NCBI GenBank assembly: GCA_964629385.1
Contig: CAZVUR010000001.1
Location: 1 to 42,165 of the forward strand
Source: an uncultured Candidatus Saccharibacteria bacterium
GTDB taxonomy: Bacteria; Patescibacteriota; Saccharimonadia; Saccharimonadales; Saccharimonadaceae
Reading direction: 5' to 3'
DNA: 42,165 bases
Position 1 is the first letter of the stretch. Each line of letters starts with the position of its first letter. Under the pieces are notes generated by a model. The model was given only the letters and a program-made list of their open reading frames with translations, was not told the origin of the DNA and made no database searches. The position numbers were made by a program, and so were the translations under genes. Below, one piece after another: positions 2,295 through 42,165 of this stretch.

Positions 2295-4526
2295 ATGGCA
2301 AAGTACACATGTCCGATGCATCCAGACGTTACGAGCAATGAACCGGGTTTATGTCCGAAATGCAACATGAATCTTGTATCGGATGATGGCACAGAAGATA
2401 AAACCGACGATGATCATGGTCACAGCAACTCATCGGTCACAGCGCATAACAGCGTATACGCTTGTCCTATGCATCCAGATGTTACATCGGATAACCCAGG
2501 TATGTGTCCAAAGTGCCACATGGCACTCGAAAAGAAGAAGCAATCATCACATGCTCAGCACGACCATCATGACAAGCATGCTGGTCACAACCCAAACATG
2601 TTTAGGCAGAAGTTTTGGATTAGTTTGCTACTGACTATTCCGACATTGATATTTTCTCCGATGATACAGGGTTGGTTTGGGGTTAATCTGACATTTACTG
2701 GTAGTGAATATATCTCAGCAATCTTCGGCATCATTATATTCTTTTACGGTGGCATGGTGTTTCTAAAAAGTGCCAAAGCGGAGCTTGCGGCTCGACAGCC
2801 GGGTATGATGACACTGATTTCGATGGCGATAACAGTGGCGTTTGTCTATAGTACGCTCGTAACGCTCAAGCTCGTTAACGGCATGGACTTTTGGTGGGAA
2901 CTTGCCACACTGGTGACGATTATGTTGCTCGGACATTGGCTAGAAATGGCATCAGTGGAAAGTGCCCAGGGCGCACTCAACGAGCTTGCCAAACTGCTGC
3001 CTGATGAAGCGGAGCTGATCGAACATGGAAAAAGTCGCAAGGTCTCGGTAAGTCAGCTTAAGGTAGGTGATTCTGTATTGGTTCGCCCCGGCGCGCAGGT
3101 TCCGGTAGATGGAAAAGTCATCAAAGGTAGTTCTGAGGTTAACGAATCAATGCTAACCGGTGAATCAAAGCCGGTGAAGAAAACAGTCGGAGCTGAGGTT
3201 ATTGGTGGGACGATTAATGCAAATGGTGCTTTAACGATTGAAGTTACGAAAGTTGGCGGCGATACGACGCTGGCCGGCATTATGAAACTGGTTGAAGATG
3301 CCCAAACTAGCAAGTCAAAAACTCAAGTGCTGGCAGATAAAGCGGCCTTCTACCTGACATTTGTTGCGCTTGGTGCGGCACTCCTGACATGGATAGGCTG
3401 GTGGATGGCTGGTGCGTCGGCGGACTTTATTTTTGAACGAGTTGTCACCGTACTGGTAATTGCCTGTCCGCATGCGCTTGGTCTGGCTATTCCTCTCGTC
3501 ACGGCTATCTCTACGACACTCGCAGCGAAAAATGGGTTGCTGGTACGGGAACGTATGGCACTTGAATCGGCACGTAATATCGACGTCATACTATTTGATA
3601 AGACAGGCACGCTTACTAAGGGTGAGCAAGGCGTGGTTGGCATCCTCGCCAAAGACCAGAGCCGTACTTTGAGTATTGCTGCTGCACTTGAACGCGAATC
3701 AGAGCATCCGATTGCAAAAGCAATTTTCCAGTACGCACACGATCAAAATGTGCCGGAAACTCACACCACTGACTTTTCGGCACTTTCTGGCCGTGGTGTA
3801 CGAGCTAAAGTTGATGGCAAAACTGTGTATGTCGGCGGTCCGAGACTACTTGAAGAGTTGAAACTGAAGCTTGATAATGAATTACAAAAGGCAGCAGATG
3901 AAGCCTCAAACGACGGAAAAACAGTTGTGTATGTCGTCGAAAACGAGACCATTCTCGGTGCAATTATGCTAGCTGATGTTATCCGCGAAGAGTCCAAGGA
4001 GGCCGTTACTCGGCTGCACAGTATGGGCAAACGCGTTGCGATGCTAACAGGAGACAGTAAGGGCGTGGCGGCTTGGGTTGCCAAAGAACTCGGCATCAAA
4101 GAGTACTTCGCCGAAGTCCTGCCGGAGAATAAAGCCGAAACGGTCAAGAAGCTACAGGCTGATGGCAGTCGAGTTGCCATGGTTGGCGACGGCGTGAACG
4201 ATGCGCCTGCACTAACACAGGCAAATATAGGCATTGCGATTGGTGCTGGTACGGACGTGGCGATTGAGTCGGCAGGTATCGTGCTAGCGAGCAGCGACCC
4301 GCGCGGTGTGGCGAAGATAGTCACGCTTTCAAAAGCAACCTACCGTAAGATGCTGCAAAACCTTGCCTGGGCAACTGGTTACAATGCCCTCGCGATTCCA
4401 TTGGCCGCTGGCGTCACTTCGGCATTTGGTTTTGTCCTCTCGCCAGCATTAGGGGCAGTACTAATGTCACTTTCGACGATTATTGTTGCTATCAATGCTC
4501 AGTTCTTACGACGGATTAAATTATAA
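2295..4526 (+). CDS. copB: Heavy-metal (copper) translocating P1B-type ATPase, CPH-type with a His-rich N-terminus
   Basis: DKTGTLT, GDGVNDAP, TGES and a transmembrane CPH motif (VIACPHALGL). The N-terminus has two CPMHPDVTS..CPKC fingers and His-rich stretches. Confidence 0.9.
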   Translation: MAKYTCPMHPDVTSNEPGLCPKCNMNLVSDDGTEDKTDDDHGHSNSSVTAHNSVYACPMHPDVTSDNPGMCPKCHMALEKKKQSSHAQHDHHDKHAGHNPNMFRQKFWISLLLTIPTLIFSPMIQGWFGVNLTFTGSEYISAIFGIIIFFYGGMVFLKSAKAELAARQPGMMTLISMAITVAFVYSTLVTLKLVNGMDFWWELATLVTIMLLGHWLEMASVESAQGALNELAKLLPDEAELIEHGKSRKVSVSQLKVGDSVLVRPGAQVPVDGKVIKGSSEVNESMLTGESKPVKKTVGAEVIGGTINANGALTIEVTKVGGDTTLAGIMKLVEDAQTSKSKTQVLADKAAFYLTFVALGAALLTWIGWWMAGASADFIFERVVTVLVIACPHALGLAIPLVTAISTTLAAKNGLLVRERMALESARNIDVILFDKTGTLTKGEQGVVGILAKDQSRTLSIAAALERESEHPIAKAIFQYAHDQNVPETHTTDFSALSGRGVRAKVDGKTVYVGGPRLLEELKLKLDNELQKAADEASNDGKTVVYVVENETILGAIMLADVIREESKEAVTRLHSMGKRVAMLTGDSKGVAAWVAKELGIKEYFAEVLPENKAETVKKLQADGSRVAMVGDGVNDAPALTQANIGIAIGAGTDVAIESAGIVLASSDPRGVAKIVTLSKATYRKMLQNLAWATGYNALAIPLAAGVTSAFGFVLSPALGAVLMSLSTIIVAINAQFLRRIKL

Positions 4527-8302: not shown

Positions 8303-8467
8303 TCAAGAAACAGTCAGCCTTAGCAGGTTTACGTCATCGTTTGCGGCAAAATAGAATAGTTTTGTGTCGTTATTGATTTTCATTACATATTTAATCTTTT
8401 TTAACAAAGTTTTAAAAATACGTAGTAGAATTTGCAATATTACCAAAAGTGTTACAAATACTCATGA

Positions 8468-8497
8468 GTTCGAAACACGTCCACTAGCCCCATACCA
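8468..8497 (+). repeat. tRNA-3'-end-like core repeat, copy 0 (diverged)
   Basis: GTTCGAAACACGTCCACTAGCCCCATACCA. Compare the tRNA-Gln 3' end GTTCGAATCCCTCCACCCCAGCCA and the other core copies. Confidence 0.6.
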
Positions 8498-8500
8498 TTA

Positions 8501-8532
8501 TTGACAAATAATACAACTTATGCTAATATAAT
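8501..8532 (+). promoter_or_regulatory. Near-consensus sigma70 promoter P1 driving GC-rich cassette 1
   Basis: TTGACA (8501-8506), 17 nt, TAATAT (8524-8529) with TG at 8521-8522. An alternative TATAAT lies at 8527-8532. Confidence 0.65.
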
Positions 8533-8595
8533 ATTGATGTCCTAGCTTTGGAATCCGAGATTTCTCCACTCGACAAGAGGAGGCGAGGAGTTAAC

Positions 8596-9039
8596 ATGAA
8601 CACGCAGACCCTGGTCGAGTTCGACCAGAGCCAGGCCCAGACCTACAACGCGCTCTACGTCGTGAAGCAGGCCGTTCTCGTTCCCGTCCCGGACGGCATC
8701 GAGACGGTCATCAACGCGGAGTGGGGCGAGGAGCAGAAGTTCGTCGGTGCCTGGTACGGCATCTACGTCGACGGCGCGATCGTCTACGGCTCCGCCAAGA
8801 AGGAGTTCGACGACAGCCACGGCAAGACCGACGAGCTCGAGAACGGGTACTTCAAGGACACGCCCATCAGCGCGTACCAGTACCACGGCCCGACCGCACG
8901 AGTCCAGACCGTCCTCGCGGACGGCACCGTCGAGACCGGGAACACCATCTCGGACGGCGACTGGCTCGTGAAGTGGCCGGCCGGCGAGGTCGGAGTCCTG
9001 AAGGACGACAACTTCCGCAAGCGCTACCAGGTCAACTGA
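8596..9039 (+). CDS. GC-rich foreign ORF 1a, hypothetical protein (147 aa)
   Basis: ATG at 8596 lies 5 nt after GAGGAG. G/C-dominated third codon positions. The C-terminal DGDWLVKWPAGEVGVL is weakly reminiscent of small phage-type PGDYG-like proteins (unverified). Confidence 0.7.
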   Translation: MNTQTLVEFDQSQAQTYNALYVVKQAVLVPVPDGIETVINAEWGEEQKFVGAWYGIYVDGAIVYGSAKKEFDDSHGKTDELENGYFKDTPISAYQYHGPTARVQTVLADGTVETGNTISDGDWLVKWPAGEVGVLKDDNFRKRYQVN

Positions 9040-9044
9040 TCCAC

Positions 9045-9185
9045 ATGAGGCGCAGGCTGAGGAGGATCAAGCACGGGATCTTCGGACACCCCCGCGAGGA
9101 CATGATCTTCGGCGACATGGTCGAAGGCAACACCTGCACGTCGTGTGGGTGGAACTTCAAGCGGGCCGACATCACCGTGGGCTGA
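9045..9185 (+). CDS. GC-rich foreign small ORF 1b (46 aa, CxxC)
   Basis: ATG lies 5 nt after the ORF 1a stop. Same G/C-rich third-position bias. Sequence MRRRLRRIKHGIFGHPREDMIFGDMVEGNTCTSCGWNFKRADITVG. Below the 60-aa track cutoff as a separate ORF. Confidence 0.5.
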   Translation: MRRRLRRIKHGIFGHPREDMIFGDMVEGNTCTSCGWNFKRADITVG

Positions 9186-9194
9186 CAACAACCC

Positions 9195-9298
9195 CAACTA
9201 CACCCTCAGGAGAGGAGAGCACCCGAGCATGGGAGCCCCTCGAATGAGGGTGCTTCCATATCTAAATGTTCCTGAAACACATCCACCAGCCCCAGCCA
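9195..9298 (+). repeat. Cassette 3' module M, copy A (GC-rich hairpin half plus AT-rich linker plus core copy 1 at 9268-9298)
   Basis: CAACTACACCCTCA...GGGAGCCCCTCGAATGAGGGTGCTTCC-ATATCTAAAT-GTTCCTGAAACACATCCACCAGCCCCAGCCA. Aligns with copies at 10073 and 10627. Confidence 0.8.
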
Positions 9299-9363
9299 AG
9301 CTTAAGTATTATAAATAGGCCTTTTGGGTCTATTTTGTTATTATCGTTTTAGTGAAAAATTTA

Positions 9364-9495
9364 ATGAACAAAAAGATCGCAAATCAATCCAAGCGTAATA
9401 TTCTTTTCCTATACATATTATTTTTTGTTGGAGTTCTGATTTTTCTTTACGCAATTTTTGTGACATTGCGATACGTTCTTACTGAATCTTGGTAG
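9364..9495 (+). CDS. Small hydrophobic peptide (43 aa), native AT-rich composition
   Basis: MNKKIANQSKRNILFLYILFFVGVLIFLYAIFVTLRYVLTESW. One TM helix. The stop lies 5 nt before core copy 2. No clear RBS was seen. Confidence 0.35.
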   Translation: MNKKIANQSKRNILFLYILFFVGVLIFLYAIFVTLRYVLTESW

Positions 9496-9500
9496 TATTC

Positions 9501-9530
9501 TTCCTGAAACACATCCACTAGCCCCAGCCA
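9501..9530 (+). repeat. tRNA-3'-end-like core repeat, copy 2
   Basis: TTCCTGAAACACATCCACTAGCCCCAGCCA. It is followed by AAGACGCTTATGGTTTAAAT, which matches the trailer after copy 5 (10923-10941). Confidence 0.8.
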
Positions 9531-9578
9531 AGACGCTTATGGTTTAAATACTTCATTCGGAAGTCTATTTGTTTATGC

Positions 9579-9608
9579 TTGCAATTCCTTATTATTAAAC
9601 GGTAATCT
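9579..9608 (+). promoter_or_regulatory. Sigma70-like promoter P2 driving GC-rich cassette 2
   Basis: TTGCAA (9579-9584), 18 nt, TAATCT (9603-9608). The composition jump at ~9617 coincides with the predicted +1. Confidence 0.5.
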
Positions 9609-9645
9609 ATATTTACACGTTCCACACCGAGCTAAGGAGAGTGCG

Positions 9646-10089
9646 ATGGACGTGAGTATCAAACCAGCAGATAAGCAGGCGCGTGAGGCAGTCATCAAGG
9701 CGCGCGAAGACAAGGAGGCTGCTCGGGTTGCGCGCAAAGAGAAGCGCAAGAAGCGGAAGGCCGAGAAGCGAGACCCGGTCGTTGCCAAACGGCTCAGGCG
9801 GCGGATCGAGAAAGAAGTTCTCGCTGATCTTCTCACCGAGAAGCGGTGCTACCTCAATGCTCAGCCTTCGACCGGCCAGTATGTGATCGACACGCGAATT
9901 CGCTACGGCTGGACGCTGAAGCGGAAGTGGCGTTACGACAAAGACACCGTCGAGCGAATCTTCCTGGAAGTGCTCGCAAGTCACAACGGTTTCGAGCACA
10001 AGGCCGACTACCGTTGTCAGGGCCCGTGGTGGTGTGTCCGAATCGATGTTCAGTACACCCTGCTGGACCACTCAAGTACACCCTCATGA
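9646..10089 (+). CDS. GC-rich foreign ORF 2, hypothetical (147 aa): Lys/Arg/Glu-rich N-terminal half, Trp/Cys-containing C-terminal domain
   Basis: ATG lies 6 nt after AAGGAGAG. G/C-rich third positions. The last codons and the TGA lie inside module M copy B. Confidence 0.7.
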   Translation: MDVSIKPADKQAREAVIKAREDKEAARVARKEKRKKRKAEKRDPVVAKRLRRRIEKEVLADLLTEKRCYLNAQPSTGQYVIDTRIRYGWTLKRKWRYDKDTVERIFLEVLASHNGFEHKADYRCQGPWWCVRIDVQYTLLDHSSTPS

Positions 10090-10172
10090 GAGGAGACGCG
10101 ACCAAGTTGGGAGCCCCTCGAATGAGGGTGCTTCCATATCTAAATGTTCCTGAAACACATCCACTATCCCCA
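10073..10172 (+). repeat. Cassette 3' module M, copy B (core copy 3 at 10146-10172, truncated before GCCA)
   Basis: Identical to copy A over GGGAGCCCCTCGAATGAGGGTGCTTCCATATCTAAATGTTCCTGAAACACATCCAC. Runs directly into promoter P3. Confidence 0.8.
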
Positions 10173-10188
10173 ATTGTGGGTTAGATGA

Positions 10189-10217
10189 TTGACATAATAT
10201 TATTTATTTGTTATAAT
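10189..10217 (+). promoter_or_regulatory. Consensus sigma70 promoter P3 driving GC-rich cassette 3
   Basis: TTGACA (10189-10194), 17 nt, TATAAT (10212-10217) with TG at 10209-10210. Confidence 0.75.
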
Positions 10218-10267
10218 ATATTTAAGACGTGACTTTCACGTCCGAACCGAGTGAGAAAGGCATTCAG

Positions 10268-10615
10268 ATGCCGAAGTACGCGTTCAACAGCAAGAAGATT
10301 GTCGACCTCGTCGACGAGGACGAGGACTTGGTCCGGATCCTGGACCAGAAGACGGTTCGGGCTGACAACGTCCAGATCAAGGGCTACCCGACCAAGATGG
10401 ACGGCCATCTCTACCCCGTCAACTTCGTGCTCACCACTTCGAGCTACTACTACGAGGTCTCCATCTACCTGGAGACCGCCGAGATCCAGAAGTGCGACAT
10501 CTCCAGCTCCAGCGTGATCGAGTCCGACGTGTTCACTGCGCTGGACGACTTCACCGAGAAGCTGATGGCAATCCTCGAGGAGGTCGAGTCCGCCGAGAAG
10601 ATCGCCGCCGTCTGA
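10268..10615 (+). CDS. GC-rich foreign ORF 3, acidic hypothetical protein (115 aa)
   Basis: ATG at 10268 lies after GAGAAAGG. 19 of the first 20 codons end in G/C (hand count). The track ORF begins at an upstream GTG (10229) that lacks an RBS. Confidence 0.7.
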   Translation: MPKYAFNSKKIVDLVDEDEDLVRILDQKTVRADNVQIKGYPTKMDGHLYPVNFVLTTSSYYYEVSIYLETAEIQKCDISSSSVIESDVFTALDDFTEKLMAILEEVESAEKIAAV

Positions 10616-10626
10616 ATCAGCTCGCT

Positions 10627-10733
10627 CAACTACACCCTCATGAAAGGACAAGCGCCTGCAACAATGGAGCTCCTCGATTGAGGGTGCTTCCATTTGTAAA
10701 TTCTTCCTGAAACACATCCACTAACCCCAGCCA
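10627..10733 (+). repeat. Cassette 3' module M, copy C (core copy 4 at 10704-10733)
   Basis: CAACTACACCCTCATGAAAGGA...GGAGCTCCTCGATTGAGGGTGCTTCC-ATTTGTAAATTC-TTCCTGAAACACATCCACTAACCCCAGCCA. The hairpin arms are preserved through C-to-T (G:U) changes. Confidence 0.8.
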
Positions 10734-10734
10734 T

Positions 10735-10768
10735 AGAAAAAGACTGAGCATCTGCTCGGTCTTTTTCT
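10735..10768. terminator. Strong bidirectional-looking hairpin terminator
   Basis: AGAAAAAGACTGAGC-atct-GCTCGGTCTTTTTCT, a ~15 bp stem flanked by an A-run and a T-run. Confidence 0.65.
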
Positions 10769-10769
10769 A

Positions 10770-10904
10770 TAACTCGGGCCGGGACTACGAGCCCCCGATG
10801 CTTTTGCAAAGCAAAAGTCGGGGAGTTCGGCGTAGCGCAGCGATGATAAGAAAGCACCGAAGGTATTTTCTTATCAAGCAAGCGGAGGAGGCCTCATGGC
10901 AGAT
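10770..10904 (+). other. GC-rich structured non-coding segment abutting the tRNA-Gln 3'-end repeat (probable element-side arm of an att junction)
   Basis: No credible ORF. Hairpins CCCCGA..GCTTTTGC-aaa-GCAAAAG..TCGGGG and GATAAGAAA-12 nt-TTTCTTATC. Confidence 0.4.
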
Positions 10905-10922
10905 ATCCCTCCACCCCAGCCA
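10905..10922 (+). repeat. Exact 18-nt direct repeat of the tRNA-Gln 3' end (core copy 5, putative attR)
   Basis: ATCCCTCCACCCCAGCCA is identical to 1070-1087. Confidence 0.85.
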
Positions 10923-10936
10923 AGATGCTTATGTTT

Positions 10937-10962
10937 AAAATGACGAGAAATCGTCATTTTTT
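10937..10962 (+). terminator. Intrinsic terminator, likely the displaced original tRNA trailer terminator
   Basis: AAAATGACGA-gaaa-TCGTCATTTT followed by TT. Confidence 0.6.
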
Positions 10963-10971
10963 ATTGCTAAA

Positions 10972-11388
10972 ATGATAAGTATGAAATCAGTCGCTAAGCT
11001 TTTAATCAAGAATGGTAATGAGTTTTTAATGATGTACAGGAGTGATCATCCAACCTTTGGTATTGACCCTGATCTACCTGGCGGAACAGTGGAAGGAAGC
11101 GAGACCGTACTTCAAACCATGCTGAGAGAAGTCTACGAGGAGATCGGTGTAGTAGTTGAATCAAGTAAAGCTAGTGAAATATTCTCAGGTAACGACTATT
11201 CGGCACATGGGACTTACTATTCTCTGTTTATTACAGAGGTCGAGGACAAACCAGAGATACGCATGAGCTGGGAGCACTCATCGTATGAGTGGCTCAAGGA
11301 GTCGGAGTTTATAGAAAAGGCGGCTAGCGCAAAAGATACCTATATGCACATGGTTAGTGAGGTTCTAGCGTCGTATTCAATGTCATAA
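10972..11388 (+). CDS. NUDIX hydrolase
   Basis: Nudix box GGTVEGSETVLQTMLREVYEEIGV. Native composition. The start may be the ATG at 10981. Confidence 0.8.
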   Translation: MISMKSVAKLLIKNGNEFLMMYRSDHPTFGIDPDLPGGTVEGSETVLQTMLREVYEEIGVVVESSKASEIFSGNDYSAHGTYYSLFITEVEDKPEIRMSWEHSSYEWLKESEFIEKAASAKDTYMHMVSEVLASYSMS

Positions 11389-11390
11389 TA

Positions 11391-11420
11391 TTCCTGAAAC
11401 ACATCCACTAGTTCCAGCCA
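11391..11420 (+). repeat. tRNA-3'-end-like core repeat, copy 6
   Basis: TTCCTGAAACACATCCACTAGTTCCAGCCA begins 2 nt after the NUDIX stop codon. Confidence 0.75.
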
Positions 11421-24650: not shown

Positions 24651-24723
24651 GGGGCGTTGGCGCAGATGGTAGCGCGCTCACCTAATACGTGAGAGGTCGC
24701 AGGTTCGAGCCCTGTGCGTCCCA
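24651..24723 (+). tRNA. GC-rich tRNA with anticodon AAU (formally Ile), CC but not CCA encoded
   Basis: Hand-folded canonical cloverleaf: GGGGCGT/GCGTCCC acceptor (two G:U), U8, GCGC/GCGC D-stem with G18G19, CTCAC/GTGAG anticodon stem, loop CTAATAC, T-loop TTCGAGC, discriminator A. Confidence 0.7.
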
Positions 24724-24795
24724 CCGGAACAAGCAGGCCGCAAAAGGAGTCGGCCGTCGTGCTTTCCTCGCTCGGTATGCACACTTGTTCCATCC

Positions 24796-33936: not shown

Positions 33937-36837
33937 CTAATAAATTAGGAAGCCGGAACCAGTGCCACTCGTTGTTGCGGGTACCTGCAAAATAGGCCAA
34001 GGTGTGGGGTAAGTGGGGTTACCTTCGCCTGAAATCTGATAATAATCATTTTTACCCCAACAGTAGCCCCTGTTATCGGAGGCAATAGCACATGTGGTGT
34101 ACCTGCTTGCAGAAATACTCTTATACGTACCGCCTGCAGGCACGGCACCTTGGTTAACAAGTACGGCAGTACGACGCGTTGTTACCGTATTATCTCCAAG
34201 TTGGTTTACGTCATTTAAACCCCAACAATAGGCCTTATCTTCAGAACTGATTGTGCAGGTGTAGCTTATACCTAAAGTAATGCTTTTATAGGTGGCACCA
34301 ACAGGCATAGCACCACGCACAACGGCTACAGGTATGGTGCGTGTTGTGGTCGTGTTATCACCTAGCTGGCCGCTACCATTATTACCCCAACAATACGCTT
34401 TATCATTGGAACCAATAGCGCAGGTATGATTATTGCCAGTTGCGATGCTCTTGAAGGTCACGCCGGCGGGTATAGCGCCTTGCACAACTGCCACTGGGGC
34501 AGGATTAGTGTTTAAATAGGTAGTGTTGCCACCTTCGCCAAAGGTATTGTCGCCCCAGCAGTAGGCTTTGTTGTCGGAGCCAATTGCGCAGGTATTAATA
34601 CCGCCTGCAGAAATACTTTTGAAGGTTACACCGGCTGGCATGTCACCTTGGGCAACGGCTACAGGTGTCAGTTCTGGTGGCGCAAATATACTGCCATTAT
34701 TTCCTAGTTGTCCATTACTGTTATTACCCCAACAATAGGCTTTGTCGTTTGAGCCAATAGCGCAGGTATGACTACCCCCTGCAGAAATACTTTTGAATGT
34801 TACACCGGCTGGCATGGCACCTTGCGCAACGGCGGTAGGCGTAGGCTGGCTAGTGGTTGTGTTATCTCCCAGGACCCCGTAGCTGTTATATCCCCAGCAA
34901 TACGCTTTGTCGTTAGAGCCAATGCCGCAGGTATGATTACCGGTAGCAGACGTGCTAACTGACTTAAACGTCACGCCGGCCGGCATGGCGCCTTGCACAA
35001 CCGGGAATGGAGTGGCTGACGGACCTGAAACACCAGAGGTAGATATGCCGTTTCCAAGATAGCCGCCTTGATTACTACCCCAACAATAGGCTTTATTATC
35101 CGAAACTGTGGCACATGATTGAGTACTGCCCGCAGAAATACTAGTGAGCGTTACACTAGTTGGAATAACACCAGTAGGAACCGTAACTGGAACTGATCGA
35201 CTAGGCGTCATAGCACCATCGCCGAGCTGCGCGCTATCGTCTGCACCCCAGCAATAAATGTTAGAATCACTACCAAGAACGCAAGTATGGCTATAGCCAG
35301 CCTTAATGCTATCAAATGTTACTCCCGCGGGTATGCTTCCTTGGCTAGTAGCTACTGGAGTTAGGCGCTGCGTTTGAGTGCTGTCGCCTAGCTGCCCGTA
35401 AGTATTATCGCCCCAGCAATATAGCATGTTATTGGAGCCAATGCCGCAACTATGTAACTGGCCAGCCGCGATACCCTTAAAGGTAGAACCGGCTGGCATG
35501 GCACCTTGAGCAACTGCAACAGGAGTGAGGCGTTGGGTAGTCGTATTATCGCCCAGCTGCCCAGAAGAATTACTACCCCAGCAATAGGCTTTGTCGTTAG
35601 ATCCAATACCGCAGGTATGATACGAATTTGTGGTAATACTTTTGAAGGTAGTGCCGGCTGGCATGGCTCCTTGAGCGACCGCAACGGGGGTATAGGCCGT
35701 TCCAGTGCTATTATTTCCGAGCTGCCCATTACTGTTAAAACCCCAGCAGTAGGCTTTGTCGTTAGAGCCAATACCGCAGACATAGCCGTTTTCTGCAGCA
35801 GCTATACTTTTGAACGTAGAACCAATTGGCATGGCTCCCCTAGAAACAGCTACGGGTGTATAGCTGGCAGTTGTTGTATTATTACCAAACTGCGCATAGG
35901 TATTATCGCCCCAGCAATAGGCTTTGTCGTTTGAGCCAAGTGCGCAGGTAAAGCTGCTACCAACCGAGATACTTTTGAACGTTACACCGGCTGGGATGGC
36001 ACCTTGGGCGACAGCCACTGGCGTACTGCTGGTAGTAGTAGTGCCATCACCCAGCTGCCCAGAAGAATTACTACCCCAGCAATAGGCTTTGTTGTCGGAG
36101 CCAATAAGACAAGCATGTGAACCACCTATTGAAATGCTGCTAGCCGTTACGTCAGCTGGCATTGCGCCCCTAGAAACAGCAACAGGGATAAGCGATTTAG
36201 CTATGGTGTTGTCAAATTTAGCCGCACCCCAACAATAAACGTTATTTGTTAAATCGAGTGCACAAGTACCATAGTAACCTGCGCTTAATGACCCGGCTTT
36301 GAATGTCATCCAAGCCGAACTCGAACCCGAAATACTTATGCTAACTTTAACAGACGAATTCGTTTGCATTACCACGTCACCGCTCGTCGTTCGCACCTGC
36401 CGTACGATGCCTTGTGAATTAAAATCTGTCGGCGTGCCGCCGCTATCACTGACTATTCCAACACTAAACGCTGTTCTATAATTTCCACTCTTTAATACAT
36501 AGCATGCTACATCAGTGCTTGATGAAGGACAGCTGATGTTTTCAGTCCCCGTACAATCGGTGTTAGGTTTGAGGGGTTTTGCATCCGTCCATGTAATGCT
36601 TCCACCGTTCTTTTTCATACACGCATTAGCCATAGCAATTCCAGACTTAGCAGCGGAGCGGCCGATTTGGTCAACGTATTGGTTGCGAATACCAGCAGAG
36701 ATGGAGCTAACGCCAGTCAGGGCAGCGAGCAGTACGACCATCATGACGACGGAGGCAACAAGAACAGTGGGTAAAGCAAAGCCTTCTGACTTTGTTTTAC
36801 CCTTATAACGATGTGCTACTTGTCTTGTCCAACCCAT
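33937..36837 (-). CDS. Pilin-like (prepilin-type N-terminus) surface protein with ~14 RCC1-like beta-propeller repeats (966 aa)
   Basis: N-terminal KSEGFALPTVLVASVVMMVVLLAAL resembles a class III signal/minor pilin lacking E5. There are 14 YCWG motifs spaced ~52-56 aa apart (GSNDKAYCWGxNxxGQLG...TPVAV). Confidence 0.75.
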   Translation of the reverse strand: MGWTRQVAHRYKGKTKSEGFALPTVLVASVVMMVVLLAALTGVSSISAGIRNQYVDQIGRSAAKSGIAMANACMKKNGGSITWTDAKPLKPNTDCTGTENISCPSSSTDVACYVLKSGNYRTAFSVGIVSDSGGTPTDFNSQGIVRQVRTTSGDVVMQTNSSVKVSISISGSSSAWMTFKAGSLSAGYYGTCALDLTNNVYCWGAAKFDNTIAKSLIPVAVSRGAMPADVTASSISIGGSHACLIGSDNKAYCWGSNSSGQLGDGTTTTSSTPVAVAQGAIPAGVTFKSISVGSSFTCALGSNDKAYCWGDNTYAQFGNNTTTASYTPVAVSRGAMPIGSTFKSIAAAENGYVCGIGSNDKAYCWGFNSNGQLGNNSTGTAYTPVAVAQGAMPAGTTFKSITTNSYHTCGIGSNDKAYCWGSNSSGQLGDNTTTQRLTPVAVAQGAMPAGSTFKGIAAGQLHSCGIGSNNMLYCWGDNTYGQLGDSTQTQRLTPVATSQGSIPAGVTFDSIKAGYSHTCVLGSDSNIYCWGADDSAQLGDGAMTPSRSVPVTVPTGVIPTSVTLTSISAGSTQSCATVSDNKAYCWGSNQGGYLGNGISTSGVSGPSATPFPVVQGAMPAGVTFKSVSTSATGNHTCGIGSNDKAYCWGYNSYGVLGDNTTTSQPTPTAVAQGAMPAGVTFKSISAGGSHTCAIGSNDKAYCWGNNSNGQLGNNGSIFAPPELTPVAVAQGDMPAGVTFKSISAGGINTCAIGSDNKAYCWGDNTFGEGGNTTYLNTNPAPVAVVQGAIPAGVTFKSIATGNNHTCAIGSNDKAYCWGNNGSGQLGDNTTTTRTIPVAVVRGAMPVGATYKSITLGISYTCTISSEDKAYCWGLNDVNQLGDNTVTTRRTAVLVNQGAVPAGGTYKSISASRYTTCAIASDNRGYCWGKNDYYQISGEGNPTYPTPWPILQVPATTSGTGSGFLIY

Positions 36838-37254: not shown

Positions 37255-37288
37255 ATACTCACGCAATTAATTGTGTGAGTATTTTTTG
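37255..37288 (+). terminator. Intrinsic terminator after the glutaredoxin-like gene
   Basis: ATACTCACGC-aattaatt-GTGTGAGTAT followed by TTTTT. Confidence 0.7.
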
Positions 37289-37342
37289 CTACTTAAAAGC
37301 CTTACGCTTGATTTTAGAATCCAGCGTGGGCATACTCTGTGT

Positions 37343-38890
37343 ATGACAGAGCAGCTTCCTACTCATAACGATTACGGTACTAATTTTTATGGCAAGCATA
37401 TCGATATCCAGTTGCTCGATGATAAAACGCTAACCGAACAACTTGAAACGCGCGATAGAATTCGCACGTACATCGACGTCGAGGATGAAGATATTCTGCC
37501 TTACCCAGCACGGCAGGTAAAGCTCGAGTCATATCATGATATAGGGCTTGATACATTACGAATTCAAGGCGAAGTAAGCTTTCGCCCAACCGACCTCCAG
37601 AATATGCCAGACACTTGGCCAGGCATGTTTCTTCAAGAACTTCAAAACAGCTTTCAAAATTATGGTTACGAGATTGCTTATCAAGAACATGATATGGCTG
37701 CACTCTACATTTCACTCGACGTAACCCATTCAATTCGTATTGCACTTTCTTCTACGGCCGTAGAATGTGCGATTGACGTGGAGCTACTCACTACTACTGA
37801 AATTGAAAATGCTACACACAATCCATTACCAGAACCATATGCTGATAGGGATTTAACCTATTTAGAAAAGTTTCGACATATTCTTACTGCATTAGGTGTT
37901 ACACTTGATAGCTTGCGTGAATATTATGGAGCTCCGCCTATGTATCACGGAAGGTATACCCTTAAGCAGTATCAGGCATCTAAAGAACTGGTTTTGCCAT
38001 CGCCTACAGTGCAAGTTAGCGGTCAGCCACATGCAAGCGAAATGACAGCAGAAACCCAAGCCGTAAATTATGGTCTCGAATCATTCGGAGGCGCAAAACA
38101 TGCAAAAAATCGTTTATACGAATTTGCGGCAATAATGAACAATCCAGATGAAGCAAGTGAATTCGATATTCAACGCAGCCACTTTTTACTATATGGGCCG
38201 CCCGGAACCGGTAAGACAACGCTTATAACCGCCTTTGCTAACGAAATAGGTGCAACGCTTTGGGCCGTTAGCTCCACTGATTTAGTTGATATGTGGGTGG
38301 GCAATTCAGGTAAAAATGTCGTTAAGACTTTCGAGAAAGCCAAGAAGGTAGCTGGTAAGGTAGTCGTATTTTTTGACGAGTTCGACGCCCTTGCTCAAAA
38401 AGGTGGTAGAGGTGGCGGGGAGCGATCAGATGTAAGAAAAATTCTTAATACACAACTCGAGGATATTGCAAAAAATTACCCTAACATCATTGTAGCGGCG
38501 GCTACCAATGCGGATCTTGATGATCTTGAGCCTTCGCTCATTCGTTCAGGCCGCATAGAGCCGATTGGTATGCCGGTACCAACCGAAGAAGAGCGTTACG
38601 ACGTACTTGGCACTGTGCTGTTCAAATCAATTCAACGTACTATGCAAGATAAAGAATTGGTATATGACGAAAAAAGTATGTTTCAGCCTTCTGAGACATT
38701 TGTGCTATACGACCAGTCTATTGATATAGATGAGCTTGTGCGCCATACGGACGGGATGACAGGAGCCGACTTCGAAGTTATTTTAGAGCGGGCTCGCAAA
38801 AAACATTTTATGCGCTTCAAGGAAACTGGGGAGAAAAATCCTGTAACCCAACAAGATTTACTCCGCGAAATCAGAGAATTTGGCCGCTAG
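37343..38890 (+). CDS. AAA+ ATPase (classic clade, FtsH/CDC48-like module) with an unrecognised ~270-aa N-terminal domain
   Basis: LLYGPPGTGKTTL, VVFFDEFDAL and ATNADLDDLEPSLIRSGRIE. The start is chosen at MTEQL because the track start at 37271 lies inside the upstream terminator. Confidence 0.75.
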   Translation: MTEQLPTHNDYGTNFYGKHIDIQLLDDKTLTEQLETRDRIRTYIDVEDEDILPYPARQVKLESYHDIGLDTLRIQGEVSFRPTDLQNMPDTWPGMFLQELQNSFQNYGYEIAYQEHDMAALYISLDVTHSIRIALSSTAVECAIDVELLTTTEIENATHNPLPEPYADRDLTYLEKFRHILTALGVTLDSLREYYGAPPMYHGRYTLKQYQASKELVLPSPTVQVSGQPHASEMTAETQAVNYGLESFGGAKHAKNRLYEFAAIMNNPDEASEFDIQRSHFLLYGPPGTGKTTLITAFANEIGATLWAVSSTDLVDMWVGNSGKNVVKTFEKAKKVAGKVVVFFDEFDALAQKGGRGGGERSDVRKILNTQLEDIAKNYPNIIVAAATNADLDDLEPSLIRSGRIEPIGMPVPTEEERYDVLGTVLFKSIQRTMQDKELVYDEKSMFQPSETFVLYDQSIDIDELVRHTDGMTGADFEVILERARKKHFMRFKETGEKNPVTQQDLLREIREFGR

Positions 38891-40608
38891 GCGCCAATTT
38901 TAATTACTTCGCCTTCTATAGCTTTTCGAAAATAGTCATCATGGCTTACATACAGTATCGCGCCGCTGTACTTTTTTAGTGCCGTTTCAAGTTCTTCGAT
39001 GCTTGGTAAATCCAGGTGATTGGTTGGCTCGTCCAAAATAAGCAGTTGCGGATCGTTGGCAAGCATGGCGATTACCTGCAACCGTGCTTTTTGGCCGCCT
39101 GAAAGCTTTTCTACAGGTATATGGCCGTCGGTTTCGGTAAATAGATAGTCGTGCATCAGCCCACGGATTTTTGTTTCGTTAATTTGCAAATTGCGATCTA
39201 AATAGGTTCGCTCGATAGCATCCTTCAGCGGCAAGTCAAAATAATCTGGGGATACCTCTTGCTCGTATACACCTATACGGACCTTTGAATCGAGCGACAG
39301 TTCGCCGTGGAATACGGTAATCGCTGATGAAGCAGTCGCATCGTCTTGTGAGTTCGCTGGCCCCGTTGGAGCGCTGCGAACAACACGCGAACGAATAAGA
39401 TGATGCGACTTCTGATTCTCTAGCAACTTCTTTATAAACGTACTTTTACCAGCACCGTTACGGCCCCGTAGCTCTACTGCTTCGCCTTCACGCAAATCAA
39501 TATTTATGCCGCTAAACAGGGGAGTATCGTAACCCAAGCTCACATTGGCCGCCTTTACCAGCACATGACTTGAACGTGACGATTCATCTTTGATGTTCAT
39601 TTTGATATTACGCGCTTTGAATTTAGCATATTGGCCAGCTACTTTGTAATTCAAATTTTCAGCCGATTCGCGGTCAATCCAAAAAGTTGGCTTTTCTTTG
39701 GCCTGAAGCTCAGCCAATTCTTTACGCGATTCTTGCTCTAACCGCTTGAACTTCTGGATCGTTTGCGGATTACGCGATTTTTCTTTAAGGCGCTGGTAAT
39801 CAATTACTTTTTGCTTCAAGTTCACGATTCGCTTTTCGATCAGCTCGAATTCGTTCATGGCCGTACCGGTTGAGTGGGCATTTTGCTTTAAATAGGCATC
39901 GTAATTACCTTTAAAGCTCTGCGAACCGCCGTCTTTTAATTCTACGATCCTATCGACTTGCTGCAGCACATCACGGTCGTGCGTAATAATCAGCATGGCT
40001 TCGGGTGCTTGTTTCATCCAATCGATGAACTGCTTTTTGGCTACGTAATCCATGTGGTTTGTCGGCTCGTCGATCAGTGCCAAATGGGCCTGCGCATGCA
40101 TGACTTTTACCACTTCGACGAGTCGCTTTTGACCACCAGATAAAGAGGCGAGGGGACGATGAGCGATGTCGGGCAGTTGGAATGTTTCCAGCTCGCGCTC
40201 GATATCGCTTTCTATTTGGTAAAACCCTTTATCGTCAAACCGTTGCAGTGCCTCGGTGTATTCAGAAATTTTCTTCATGTCGTCGCCCATGGTCATGGGG
40301 TATGTTTCTACGATATGGCTTAGCTGGCTGTATTCAGGCAAGCCGGCTAACACATATTGCAGCACGGTCTGCTCGTTGGTGCCATGATGCTCCTGCGCTG
40401 TCGCTACAACGGTCGTGCCGCGTTTAAAAATAACCTCGCCGGTATAATCCGTATCAATTCCCGCCAGCATGCCAAATAGGGTACTTTTACCCACACCGTT
40501 GCGGCCAATCACCCCAACCTTCTCGCCGTCATCCACCGAGAATTTGACATTCGTCATCAGGACCTTAGGCCCAAACGACTTTTCGGTAATAGAAATATCG
40601 GCAATCAT
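38887..40608 (-). CDS. ABC-F family ATPase (two ABC domains, no TM domain)
   Basis: Two Walker A motifs (GRNGVGKST, GRNGAGKST), two LSGGQK signatures and an inter-domain charged linker. Confidence 0.9.
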   Translation of the reverse strand: MIADISITEKSFGPKVLMTNVKFSVDDGEKVGVIGRNGVGKSTLFGMLAGIDTDYTGEVIFKRGTTVVATAQEHHGTNEQTVLQYVLAGLPEYSQLSHIVETYPMTMGDDMKKISEYTEALQRFDDKGFYQIESDIERELETFQLPDIAHRPLASLSGGQKRLVEVVKVMHAQAHLALIDEPTNHMDYVAKKQFIDWMKQAPEAMLIITHDRDVLQQVDRIVELKDGGSQSFKGNYDAYLKQNAHSTGTAMNEFELIEKRIVNLKQKVIDYQRLKEKSRNPQTIQKFKRLEQESRKELAELQAKEKPTFWIDRESAENLNYKVAGQYAKFKARNIKMNIKDESSRSSHVLVKAANVSLGYDTPLFSGINIDLREGEAVELRGRNGAGKSTFIKKLLENQKSHHLIRSRVVRSAPTGPANSQDDATASSAITVFHGELSLDSKVRIGVYEQEVSPDYFDLPLKDAIERTYLDRNLQINETKIRGLMHDYLFTETDGHIPVEKLSGGQKARLQVIAMLANDPQLLILDEPTNHLDLPSIEELETALKKYSGAILYVSHDDYFRKAIEGEVIKIGA

Positions 40609-40646
40609 AAGATGCTATTGTAACAGAGGTGGCCCAGGATTGATAG

Positions 40647-40675
40647 TTGACATTTTTAATTAAATTTGCTATAAT
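40647..40675 (+). promoter_or_regulatory. Consensus sigma70 promoter P6 driving GC-rich unit 6
   Basis: TTGACA (40647-40652), 17 nt, TATAAT (40670-40675) with TG at 40667-40668. Confidence 0.75.
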
Positions 40676-40749
40676 ATAATTATACCTGTCATCGCACCCG
40701 CATGCAGGCCGATCAATCTGTCTTCGCTGAAGACAGAAGGGAGCACCAA

Positions 40750-41001
40750 ATGAACCGCATCGTCAACGTCGCGACCGTCGTGGTCGGAGGCATCGTCGCC
40801 ATCAAGATCGCGAAGGAGGTCAAGGACTTCATCGTGTTCGACGCCGGCTCGACCGAGAACCGCCGCTACCGGAAGTTCTACAAGGAGATCTCCCGGGCGG
40901 CCAACAAGATGAAGAACGTGTCGGTGGAAGAGCTGATGGAGCTGCTGCGTGGTGAGGAGCTCACGCCCCAGGTGGCCGGCTCCGACCGCAACGCCATGTA
41001 G
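40750..41001 (+). CDS. GC-rich foreign ORF 6 (83 aa), N-terminal TM helix
   Basis: ATG lies 6 nt after AAGGGAG. Sequence MNRIVNVATVVVGGIVAIKIAKEV... with G/C-rich third positions. The upstream ATG at 40702 lies in a leader hairpin without an RBS. Confidence 0.65.
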   Translation: MNRIVNVATVVVGGIVAIKIAKEVKDFIVFDAGSTENRRYRKFYKEISRAANKMKNVSVEELMELLRGEELTPQVAGSDRNAM

Positions 41002-41042
41002 TCCGCACCTGTCCGACCTGATGATTGCCCGCGACCCATCAT

Positions 41043-41114
41043 GCCGCCGAAGACAGCCACCGAAGTCAAGCCAACAAGCTCCTTCAGGTCCGCTTCGGCG
41101 GCTGTTTTCGTTTT
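41043..41114 (+). terminator. Terminator of unit 6
   Basis: GCCGCCGAAG (41043-41052) pairs with CTTCGGCGGC (41093-41102). An inner CCGC-ttcg-GCGG hairpin is present, followed by TGTTTTCGTTTT. Confidence 0.65.
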
Positions 41115-41127
41115 ATATAAAATATTG

Positions 41128-41156
41128 TTGACAGCATACATAGGACGCAGTATCAT
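41128..41156 (+). promoter_or_regulatory. Sigma70 promoter P7 driving unit 7
   Basis: TTGACA (41128-41133), 17 nt, TATCAT (41151-41156). Confidence 0.65.
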
Positions 41157-41162
41157 TACTCT

Positions 41163-41436
41163 TAATCTGTAACGGACTCTGGGAGCGCTCGGGTGCTTCA
41201 TATACCCCGGTATGGATGCCGAGAAATCGGTTCAAATACGACATTTTCTGACCACATACGACCCGGCGTCGTATCTCCGTCTCAGAATAGACAGAGCAGA
41301 ATCGTCGTTTAGGCAGGCTAGAGAGAGGAAGGCCGCGCGGTTTTCCTGCAAATACCATACGATGCCTGCCTAAGCCCCCGCGTTCCAGCCAGACCCCTCC
41401 AAAAGGTCCGGCTGGTGCGGGGGCTCGTCAATTTCT
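41163..41436 (+). ncRNA. Candidate structured non-coding RNA (unit 7), class unknown
   Basis: No ORF with an RBS. Stems include TTAGGCAGGC...GCCTGCCTAA and ACGAC-ccggc-GTCGT, with a terminal GCCCCCGC...GCGGGGGC hairpin. The 5' part resembles module M (GGGAGC..GGGTGCTTCATATA). Confidence 0.35.
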
Positions 41437-41452
41437 TGCTATACTTTATCTA

Positions 41453-42165
41453 ATGACGAAAACACTCAACAATGTTCGCTTCTGGACATACCACGACTCA
41501 ACTAAGCCAGTTTGTATTTTTATTCATGGCTTCACTGGTAGCCACGAAGGTTTTCAGTACATCATTCCGCATTTAAAGGATTTTCATATCATCGTGCCGG
41601 ATTTGCCAGGGTTTGGCGAAAGCCCACTTACACTAAAGAAATATACGATTGATGAACTCGCAAAAGCTACTAATGAATTTGTAACCAGGCTTAATCTAAA
41701 AACACCACCTTTTTTAGTATCACACTCCATGGGTGGATTGGTTGCCGCGAGCATGCTGGCGCAAAACCCTGAACTCTATAATGGGAAAACGGTATTCATC
41801 AGCCCGGTGGCAATCAAAGTAAATTACCTGGATTCACGCAAGCTTGGCGAGCTGCTCGGCCGGTTGCAATACTTTTTAGGCAAAACCATACCAGGTGCAG
41901 GCCCGCGTATGGTGAAAAGTCGGCTGCTATCGCGCATGGCAACTAAATTAATCCTCACAACAGATGACAGAGCATTAGAAAAAGCCATTCATGGGCACCA
42001 TTTCAAAAATTTAGATTATATTTCAAGTATCAATTTTTATCACAAGCTCCATAAAGATATAAATAAAAAAGGTGCGATTGATTACGCACCTCAACTAACC
42101 AAAAAGTTCACGCCGCTGATTATTACCGGTAGCAGCGATAATGTGACCCCATTAAAAGGTGAGAA
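41453..42165 (+). CDS. Alpha/beta hydrolase (3' end outside the window)
   Basis: VCIFIHGFTGSHEGF, PDLPGFGES and SHSMGG nucleophile elbow. Open to the end of the window. An extended -10 (TGcTATACT, 41437-45) lies 7 nt before the ATG. Confidence 0.75.
   Translation, partial: MTKTLNNVRFWTYHDSTKPVCIFIHGFTGSHEGFQYIIPHLKDFHIIVPDLPGFGESPLTLKKYTIDELAKATNEFVTRLNLKTPPFLVSHSMGGLVAASMLAQNPELYNGKTVFISPVAIKVNYLDSRKLGELLGRLQYFLGKTIPGAGPRMVKSRLLSRMATKLILTTDDRALEKAIHGHHFKNLDYISSINFYHKLHKDINKKGAIDYAPQLTKKFTPLIITGSSDNVTPLKGE

Follow-up and report, generated by a model that had tools for sequence, protein, structure and literature searches.

Two GC-rich accessory units with moron-like anatomy, a putative membrane-peptide cassette and a predicted structured RNA, in a variable chromosomal slot of a Candidatus Saccharibacteria bacterium

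The contig CAZVUR010000001.1 of an uncultured Candidatus Saccharibacteria bacterium (GenBank assembly GCA_964629385.1) was analyzed over a stretch of 42,165 nucleotides, which has a GC content of approximately 46% and is referred to as the window in the following. Towards its end, the spacer between the genes for an ABC-F ATPase and an alpha/beta-hydrolase contains a two-unit accessory islet. Unit 6 is a GC-rich cassette with an open reading frame (ORF6) for a small, putatively membrane-anchored protein, and unit 7 is a stretch without a credible ORF that is predicted to be transcribed into a structured RNA. Both units resemble the other GC-rich units of the window in combining a near-consensus promoter, a transcribed body of 57–62% GC and AT-rich flanks, and perfect TTGACA-N16-18-TATNAT sites were observed three times in the window, compared to 0.06 expected occurrences. 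A preliminary description had proposed two autonomous promoter-to-terminator units at this position, one a membrane-peptide cassette rich in GC and the other a structured RNA without an ORF, and our analyses agree with this description and place both in the same class as the other GC-rich units. The following features were assigned:

40647–40675, plus strand: promoter P6, consisting of TTGACA, a 17-nt AT-rich spacer and the extended -10 box TGcTATAAT (12/12 consensus positions)
40685–40708, plus strand: leader hairpin 1 (CCTG.CAT.GC...GC.ATG.CAGG), predicted by folding, approximately 3 nt past the inferred transcription start
40717–40737, plus strand: leader hairpin 2, TCTGTCTTC-gct-GAAGACAGA, predicted by folding, ending 1 nt before the Shine-Dalgarno (SD) sequence
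40738–40743, plus strand: SD sequence AGGGAG, 6 nt upstream of the ATG, with GGAG invariant in 4/4 homologues
40750–41001, plus strand: ORF6, 83 amino acids with a predicted N-terminal membrane helix, G/C content 0.95 at third (GC3) and 0.33 at second (GC2) codon positions, homologues P0003, P0004 and P0005
41048–41117, plus strand: predicted intrinsic terminator of unit 6, formed by a long stem with interruptions (41048–41110) and a T-run behind it
41114–41431, plus strand: unit 7 insertion (promoter, RNA and terminator), 318 bp, facing a gap of ~320 nt in the related loci L075 and L079
41128–41156, plus strand: promoter P7, TTGACA-17-TATCAT (11/12 consensus positions)
41163–41431, plus strand: unit 7 RNA of ~270 nt, predicted to be non-coding and structured from its folding z-score, the lack of codon periodicity and Rfam scans

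All elements previously listed for unit 6 (promoter, leader hairpin, SD sequence and the 83-codon ORF) were found at their coordinates, and P6 (TTGACA-17-TATAAT) and P7 are present as claimed. P6 lies back to back with the divergent promoter of the ABC-F gene, is conserved in the related loci L075, L079 and L080, and its region has 13–21% GC, compared to 60–61% in the body of unit 6. The 5' untranslated region (UTR) of 68 nt is predicted to fold into two hairpins. Promoter, leader, SD sequence and terminator are homologous among the ORF6 copies according to the alignment, and the helices were evaluated on the alignment of four homologues. Leader hairpin 1 was 86% paired with two base pairs in which both sides had changed, leader hairpin 2 was 91% paired and showed UA to CG changes (CTGCC/GGCAG in L080), and the terminator stem was 94% paired with three such double changes. 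Taken together, leader hairpins and terminator were 91.5% paired with seven pairs changed on both sides, a degree of covariation that was matched by only 0–1 of 500 column shuffles, whereas slid control positions paired at 39–44%. In the predicted fold, CGAAGACAG at 41048–41056 pairs with CTGTTTTCG at 41103–41111. The preliminary description had counted this second CGAAGACAG as a separate element beside the terminator; the motif exists, but it forms the 5' side of the terminator's own stem. An upstream ATG at 40702 was rejected as start codon of ORF6, because it lies inside leader hairpin 1, is not preceded by an SD sequence and is missing from the relatives. Likewise, two minus-strand ORFs (40878–41201 and 41113–41358) span promoter and terminator boundaries and were treated as spurious.

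ORF6 is predicted to form a single N-terminal hydrophobic helix, with a Kyte-Doolittle mean over 19 residues of 1.56–1.99 in 4/4 homologues, which agrees with the single transmembrane helix and the G/C-rich third positions that had been noted before. An exhaustive phmmer/HMMER search of 1.84 billion representative sequences returned only four other ORF6 proteins, one of which (P0002) is a read-through with a frameshift, taken from a noisy long-read version of the window strain. A profile search of 5.8 billion proteins recovered the same set in four clusters, whereas a word-index search returned ORF6 itself only and a metagenome scan only the window strain. The members of the family have 73–91 amino acids. 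Copies with sequence context (L075, L076 and L079) were all located between ABC-F and hydrolase genes, and in L080, which lacks the hydrolase gene, unit 6 adjoins the neighbouring glycosyltransferase gene. Identity among these relatives was 44–51% for ORF6, compared to 88–99% for the ABC-F protein and 84–87% for the hydrolase, and ORF6 diverges about five times faster than its neighbours. ORF6 had no match in Pfam, PHROGs, PADLOC, NCBIfam or the PDB sequences, and the defense-protein models of PADLOC recognized neither ORF6 nor five other ORFs carried by the GC-rich units (cargo ORFs). An origin from actinophage holin or superinfection-exclusion proteins, as suggested earlier, found no backing in the form of a phage protein or profile: for ORF6, tblastn against phages and searches of PHROGs and IMG/VR gave no hits, tblastn with 15 concatenated slot and cargo proteins detected no relative in phages, and blastn of units 6–7 and units 4–5 against phages and a blastn search against plasmids detected only generic tRNA similarity and one chance hit of 58 nt. 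A functional analogy of ORF6 with such phage proteins is nevertheless possible.

In unit 7, the absence of a credible ORF and the abundance of stems that had been described before were both confirmed. No codon periodicity was observed in any frame, and the minimum free energy of -112.1 kcal/mol corresponds to a z-score of -5.26, with none of 200 dinucleotide shuffles reaching the same stability. The RNA is predicted to comprise a 5'-terminal stem, a GGAGCGC-ucgg-GUGCUUC hairpin (41182–41199), a GGCAGGC...GCCUGCC domain and a terminator hairpin (41373–41425), the terminator consisting of a long GC stem followed by a T-rich tail (41373–41436). A possible 39-codon GTG ORF (41193–41312) with an SD-like GGGAG was rejected, because its frame has a third-position G/C content of 0.55, compared to 0.70–0.95 in the cargo ORFs, and its start is buried in a hairpin; a codon count of the ORF itself gave a value of ~0.44. 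A scan of the window with Rfam 15 yielded two tRNAs only and no family for unit 7, a permissive scan of 40600–41500 gave a top hit of 23 bits at a cut-off of 46, and ARAGORN did not detect a transfer-messenger RNA. Thus, the comparison with Rfam that had been proposed for unit 7 matched neither 6S RNA nor the signal recognition particle RNA, nor RNase P RNA, a riboswitch, a small RNA or any other family. A role as leader or riboswitch of the hydrolase gene was rejected because the hydrolase has its own TGcTATACT promoter 7 nt from the ATG, likewise in relatives that lack unit 7, and no detectable duplex support was obtained for unit 7 as an antisense RNA to the 5' regions of ORF6, the hydrolase or the ABC-F gene.

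Unit 7 was found only in contigs of the same strain (L001–3 and L158) and in L078, a contig of noisy long reads. In L075 and L079, the terminator of unit 6 runs straight into the TGcTATACT promoter of the hydrolase gene. The mosaic pattern of identity between L079 and the window (37271–42165), with 100% for the AAA ATPase, 98.9% for the ABC-F protein, 44% for ORF6, ~96% for the 3'UTR of unit 6 and 87% for the hydrolase, indicates recombination breakpoints in and around the cassette slot; the differences in the ABC-F protein are visible in the printed N-terminal part. In further related loci (L004/L055, L005/L006, L007, L061, L015 and L017), the slot is filled by other small ORFs, most of them with near-consensus promoters and terminators, and no homology of ORF6 to the proteins of L007 and L005 was detected with hhalign. 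In the locus L007, an unrelated ORF with a near-consensus promoter of its own at the corresponding position is followed by a copy of the unit 6 terminator with 84% identity. L008, with an ABC-F protein 80% identical to that of the window, carries one unit with an ORF and then, where unit 7 lies in the window, a second unit of 547 nt that has no ORF and is predicted to be structured (3380–3926 on the minus strand of that locus), which has a GC content of 0.57, a z-score of about -3.8 and the upstream sequence TTGACT-17-TTTAAT. This unit is not homologous to unit 7 and had no Rfam match in a scan of 10 related loci.

The surroundings of the slot belong to the cellular chromosome. The closest relatives of the ABC-F ATPase gene (38887–40608, minus strand) were found only in metagenome-assembled genomes (MAGs) of Candidatus Saccharibacteria, with 92–56% identity, and the gene order glutaredoxin, AAA ATPase, ABC-F, slot, alpha/beta-hydrolase and glycosyltransferases recurs in Saccharibacteria MAGs. 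The restricted distribution of the ABC-F relatives together with the shared gene order indicates that units 6 and 7 belong to the chromosome of an environmental TM7 bacterium and not to a phage. Both flanking genes, hydrolase and ABC-F, have a -10 box (TATACT at 41440–41455 and TACAAT at 40606–40625 on the minus strand, respectively) 7–8 nt before the ATG and no SD sequence. Their mRNAs appear to be leaderless, unlike those of the cassettes with their long, structured and SD-bearing leaders. The window additionally encodes a 966-amino acid RCC1/WD40-like repeat protein (33937–36837, minus strand) built from tandem repeats of ~165 nt (9–12 copies, 60–77% identical).

The composition of the cassettes deviates strongly from that of the resident genes. 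GC3 is bimodally distributed, with 0.32–0.51 in native genes of the window, including six ATP-synthase genes, and 0.88–0.95 in the cargo ORFs except for one with 0.70. The same contrast was found in the counts of single codons:

Ile codons (ATC:ATT:ATA): 32:2:0 in cargo ORFs, 160:346:106 in native genes
Lys codons (AAG:AAA): 42:5 in cargo ORFs, 245:336 in native genes
Phe codons (TTC:TTT): 18:0 in cargo ORFs, 143:218 in native genes

The shift in composition coincides with the transcription unit: promoters have 13–33% GC, bodies 57–62% and the 40 nt past the terminators 23–30%, and for units 6 and 7, bodies of 0.57–0.61 GC are embedded in flanks of 0.21–0.33. At the protein level, the cargo is inconspicuous. 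GC2 is 0.29–0.36 in the larger cargo ORFs, and the fractions of FYMINK residues (Phe, Tyr, Met, Ile, Asn and Lys; 0.22–0.34) and GARP residues (Gly, Ala, Arg and Pro; 0.13–0.39) include the native means of 0.27 and 0.24, indicating that the cargo proteins are not of the type encoded by high-GC organisms. The bias at third positions is shared by all four ORF6 alleles, which have a GC3 of 0.89–0.95. Between the window and L075, 60–65% of the fourfold degenerate sites in the ABC-F and hydrolase genes are substituted, with every type of change, while ~30% of the fourfold sites differ within the ORF6 family. Exchanges between C and G account for 14 of the 23 differences at such sites in ORF6, compared to 19 of 174 in the neighbouring genes (Fisher p = 3e-7, calculated over pairs of sequences that are not independent). 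This predominance of C<->G synonymous turnover indicates that the third positions did turn over, but that A and T were kept out. Because the bias is found in all alleles, is accompanied by C<->G turnover and occurs behind a common AT-rich promoter at one and the same site, maintenance is better supported than recent import. Selection acting on the transcript or on translation most likely preserves the GC bias of ORF6 inside Saccharibacteria. The preliminary description had argued that conservation of ORF6 with native codon usage in relatives would speak against its interpretation of the cassette; conservation at the same locus was indeed observed, but the codon usage is non-native in the relatives as well.

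Similar units occur beyond the slot. Promoters close to TTGACA-17-TATAAT are rare, with 18 in ~700 kb (L004–L062, L159 and the window), and 12 of these 18 strong promoters precede DNA with a GC content 7–15 percentage points above that of the genome. No ORF with a GC3 of at least 0.8 was found in the loci of the oral Nanosynbacter type (L018–L046), which implies that the phenomenon may be restricted to certain clades. A second cassette family, C1a, has ~30 homologues, of which all named ones are from Saccharibacteria, and gave weak PHROG hits (E = 3e-5). In L159, the C1a cassette is located directly 3' of a tRNA gene. We searched the literature for GC-rich, promoter-driven cassettes in Saccharibacteria and found no description of them.

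With moderate confidence, we interpret units 6 and 7 as accessory transcription units of a moron-like kind that occupy a recombination hot spot. Unit 6 would encode a rapidly diversifying protein anchored in the membrane and unit 7 a structured RNA specific to the strain, and the GC-rich composition of the transcripts would be maintained within Saccharibacteria. Each unit would be expressed from a near-consensus sigma-70 promoter and would have a GC-rich transcribed body and its own intrinsic terminator. The mRNA of unit 6 is predicted to carry a hairpin at its 5' end, another one directly in front of the strong SD sequence, which it leaves uncovered, and a long terminator stem at its 3' end, a layout that may result in a stable and highly expressed message. 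Stem-loops at the 5' terminus are known to stabilize mRNAs, for example in the 5'UTR of E. coli ompA and in the aprE and ermC leaders of Bacillus. Judged by its sequence, the message of unit 6 would resemble these cases in having one hairpin only a few nt away from the inferred 5' end, another directly before the strong SD sequence and a strong terminator hairpin. The resulting small protein would be anchored in the membrane by its N-terminus and, by analogy with the membrane proteins of morons, is probably an envelope protein at the interface to a host or phage under diversifying selection. Unit 7 would express a strain-specific structured non-coding RNA outside the described families, which probably acts in trans or binds protein.

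Phage morons, for example the HK97 gene 15 element, were reportedly described by Juhala and colleagues in 2000. Units 6 and 7 share with them their own promoters, which are consensus matches at 12/12 and 11/12 positions, and their own factor-independent terminators with a GC stem and a T-rich tail, the one of unit 6 with covariation. The base composition departs from that of the flanks (GC3 of 0.95 against 0.32–0.51), and unit 7 adds DNA between genes that are direct neighbours in relatives, in a slot of variable content. Morons are characterized by a promoter and a terminator of their own and by an aberrant GC content, and gp15 of HK97 is a small membrane protein mediating superinfection exclusion (PMC3594210), as products of morons often are small membrane proteins. 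Four of five moron features were thus found, whereas the fifth, residence in a phage or prophage, was not: the units lie in a cellular chromosome next to genes for ABC-F, AAA ATPase, glutaredoxin, hydrolase and glycosyltransferases. Moreover, their deviant composition is limited to synonymous positions and kept across diverged alleles, pointing to maintenance rather than a recent transfer, and unit 7 encodes an RNA instead of a protein. In the hyperplastic regions of T4-like phages, variable ORFs are reported to be flanked by PeSL motifs that can serve as recombination substrates for modular swapping (PMC4122927). The slot resembles these regions in having small variable genes between conserved promoter and stem-loop or terminator motifs, as in L007 with its different ORF in front of the conserved terminator, but it belongs to a cellular genome, no composite repeat is common to all cassettes, and swapping is deduced from the comparison of loci. 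Hallmarks of integrons were not found, neither a repeated imperfect-palindrome site of the attC type around units 6–7 nor an IntI integrase among the ORFs checked.

Several observations limit the strength of this interpretation. Since no phage or mobile-element genes flank the locus, the term moron describes an analogy. The covariation in unit 6 was obtained with only four alleles, the promoters and terminators of both units are consensus matches from which transcription is predicted, and the support for the structure of unit 7 is thermodynamic: comparison with the divergent copy in L078 gave 18 broken and no compensatory pairs, in a contig that is riddled with indels. The dN/dS ratio (nonsynonymous to synonymous substitution rates) of ORF6 of ~0.8–1.5, which is skewed by the constraint on synonymous sites, also fits weak constraint at the protein level, and the AlphaFold2 model of ORF6 was poor (mean predicted local distance difference test score, pLDDT, of 47.5). 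Finally, the GC3 of C1a is 0.96, 0.85 and 0.70 in three genomes (window 8596–9039; L159 5001–5459; L160 5001–5459). This gradient could reflect either amelioration or variable selection, and because it resembles amelioration after import, a foreign origin of the whole class may hold.

The most probable alternative is a recent horizontal import of units 6 and 7 from a high-GC actinobacterial host or its phage, with the foreign DNA placed behind resident promoters and not yet ameliorated. Actinobacteria are known hosts of Saccharibacteria, and the codon choice of the cargo (GTC, ACC, GGC, CTC/CTG, ATC, AAG and GAG) is that of high-GC Actinobacteria. The GC3 gradient and the weak PHROG hits of C1a as well as the GC-rich tRNA in unit 5 would also fit such an origin. 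However, homologues of ORF6 and C1a were found only in Saccharibacteria contexts, the cargo had no match in 50,697 phage genomes, IMG/VR or plasmids, and the native-like GC2, FYMINK and GARP values are not those of high-GC proteins. In addition, four alleles with a common promoter, leader and terminator have kept a GC3 of ~0.9 while 60–65% of the neighbours' fourfold sites were substituted. We therefore consider recent import unlikely.

Less probable still is a riboregulated cassette, in which the 5' arm of the leader hairpin would pair alternatively with CGAAGACAG of the terminator and the state of the leader would set termination or an end-to-end closure of the mRNA. The preliminary description had proposed this alternative pairing and had ascribed to unit 6 the same logic of a bracket with a competitor as to units 4 and 5. 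The complementarity is real, with 9/9 positions between 40718–26 in the 5' arm of the leader hairpin and 41048–56 in the 5' arm of the terminator, and the pairing potential was kept in 87.5% of the cells in four homologues, compared to 34–53% at slid positions, with one UA to CG double change. However, 130 of 500 column shuffles performed equally well, so this part of the proposal did not exceed chance, and by our estimate ((800^2/2)/4^9) about one perfect inverted repeat of 9 nt is expected by chance in 800 nt. Each of the two partners is already constrained by its own local helix, and the leader hairpin would form ~320 nt before its supposed competitor is transcribed. The 9-bp pairing between leader and terminator is possible but unproven.

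Units 4 and 5 do contain highly significant leader-trailer helices, at 23773–23786/24303–24316 (14 nt, 93%) and 24484–24496/24971–24983 (13 nt, 100%), for which our own estimate of the chance expectation is ~0.015. There, the 3' side of the leader hairpin pairs with the trailer just before the terminator, and local competitors are present. The supposed identity with unit 6 does not hold, since unit 6 offers only 9 nt, in the 5' arm of the leader hairpin, and the partner is the 5' arm of the terminator itself. Leader-trailer stalks are known from rRNA and tRNA operons and from the early RNAs of T7, in which they form stems for processing by RNase III. Units 4 and 5 enclose their cargo in a comparable way by helices of 13–14 bp, and their leader-trailer repeats may be processing stalks of the RNase III type or may protect the ends, whereas unit 6 has the 9-bp candidate that overlaps with the terminator, and unit 7 has none. 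The terminators of units 4 and 5, which follow directly after the leader-trailer repeats, are related to each other (GTCTCACATT...). Inside the ORF-less cargo of unit 5 lies a GC-rich tRNA (24651–24725) with the unusual anticodon AAT (Ile), which has generic similarity only, of ~80% to tRNAs of mycobacteriophages and Gordonia phages.

A more speculative idea, to which we assign a low probability, is that the cassettes are tuned to the actinobacterial host instead of the epibiont, with transcripts or DNA being delivered to the high-GC host cell, the cargo protein with its host-type codons being translated there and GC-rich structured RNAs, unit 7 among them, acting on host targets. If this were true, host-directed cassettes would represent a bacterial-to-bacterial analogue of T-DNA (transfer DNA) or of effector RNA. 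In a weaker version, selection for G/C might act on the RNA of a whole class of accessory transcripts in Saccharibacteria, for instance because it makes them resistant to A/U-specific RNases in a conflict between epibiont and host.

Very unlikely, in our view, is a pair resembling type I toxin-antitoxin systems, with ORF6 as membrane toxin and the RNA of unit 7 as antitoxin or regulator. A small protein with a hydrophobic N-terminus is indeed encoded beside a structured RNA, and the codons of the conserved DAGS motif of ORF6 (40839–40851) are complementary to a hairpin of unit 7 (41259–41271) at 12 of 13 positions. This complementarity is probably due to chance, because both 13-mers are GCCGGC-centred near-palindromes. 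Furthermore, L075 and L079 keep ORF6 without unit 7, so that strains with ORF6 only occur naturally, no antisense promoter was found on the minus strand, and the duplex energy of unit 7 with the leader of ORF6 was no better than that of shuffled sequences (22/40). With 83 amino acids and a long polar tail, ORF6 also exceeds typical type I toxins in size. An assembly or binning artefact, with GC-rich reads chimerically joined into a Saccharibacteria contig, might be suspected from the sharp composition boundaries but is effectively refuted by identical junctions in four independent short-read assemblies and, with errors, one long-read assembly, and by homologous units in the same slot of several MAGs.

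Saccharibacteria live as obligate epibionts and have very small genomes. The locus described here represents a recurrent chromosomal hot spot for autonomous units, probably with high expression, which are exchanged and inserted there and diversify rapidly, making the cassettes candidates for strain-specific determinants of host range or immunity. The synonymous sites of the cassettes are ~90–95% G/C in a genome of 46% GC. If this bias is selected, it would provide a natural example, unusual in its clarity, of a class of transcripts being selected for their composition, and if it reflects adaptation to a high-GC host, it would suggest that genetic material or RNA passes between the epibiont and its host. 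The composition and population behaviour of the units are thus of more interest than the regulatory scheme proposed initially. For practical purposes, the cassettes may provide strong promoter, leader and terminator parts for the genetics of Patescibacteria, among which Southlakia and TM7x are reported to be naturally transformable.

The units at the different loci of the window are linked by their architecture and not by a shared module M, a sequence of the first locus that the 5' part of unit 7 had been suspected to echo. The quoted strings are present, but 20–140 of 1000 shuffles gave local alignments at least as good as those of unit 7 with the three M copies, a marginal similarity (p ~0.02–0.14), and the shared motif was not aligned by MAFFT. 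Searching IMG/VR for the pattern TGGGAGC-N4-11-GGGTGCTTC gave 77 chance hits, each in an unrelated context and none in that of module M. Module M proved to be composite. Part A is the 3'UTR hairpin of the C1a-C1b cassette (GGGAGCCCCTC-gaat-GAGGGTGCTTCC), which is conserved in L159, and part B is a decayed repeat resembling a tRNA 3' end (GAAACACATCCACnnnCCCCA), with six copies that are all located in 8472–11416 and none in 40600–41500. At most, unit 7 shares with part A a similar small hairpin (GGAGCGC-ucgg-GUGCUUC).

The first locus itself (8466–11419) consists of three GC-rich cassettes with six copies of a 21–32-nt repeat (GAAACACATCCACtAgCCCCAGCCAAG) between them. This repeat, which joins the 3'UTR hairpin in module M, is similar to tRNA-Gln (1013–1087) in its T-arm, acceptor and CCA end, and the array looks like the result of serial site-specific integration at a tRNA-type attachment (att) site. 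The 3' end of tRNA-Gln with its downstream bases (1070–1095) is duplicated at 10905–10930, at a distance of 9.8 kb and with 88% identity. The two copies enclose the cassette array and a copper-resistance island, with no integrase seen; the island comprises a P-type ATPase with an HMBD domain, three DUF305 proteins, a YHS/FAD-NAD oxidoreductase and a cytochrome b5.

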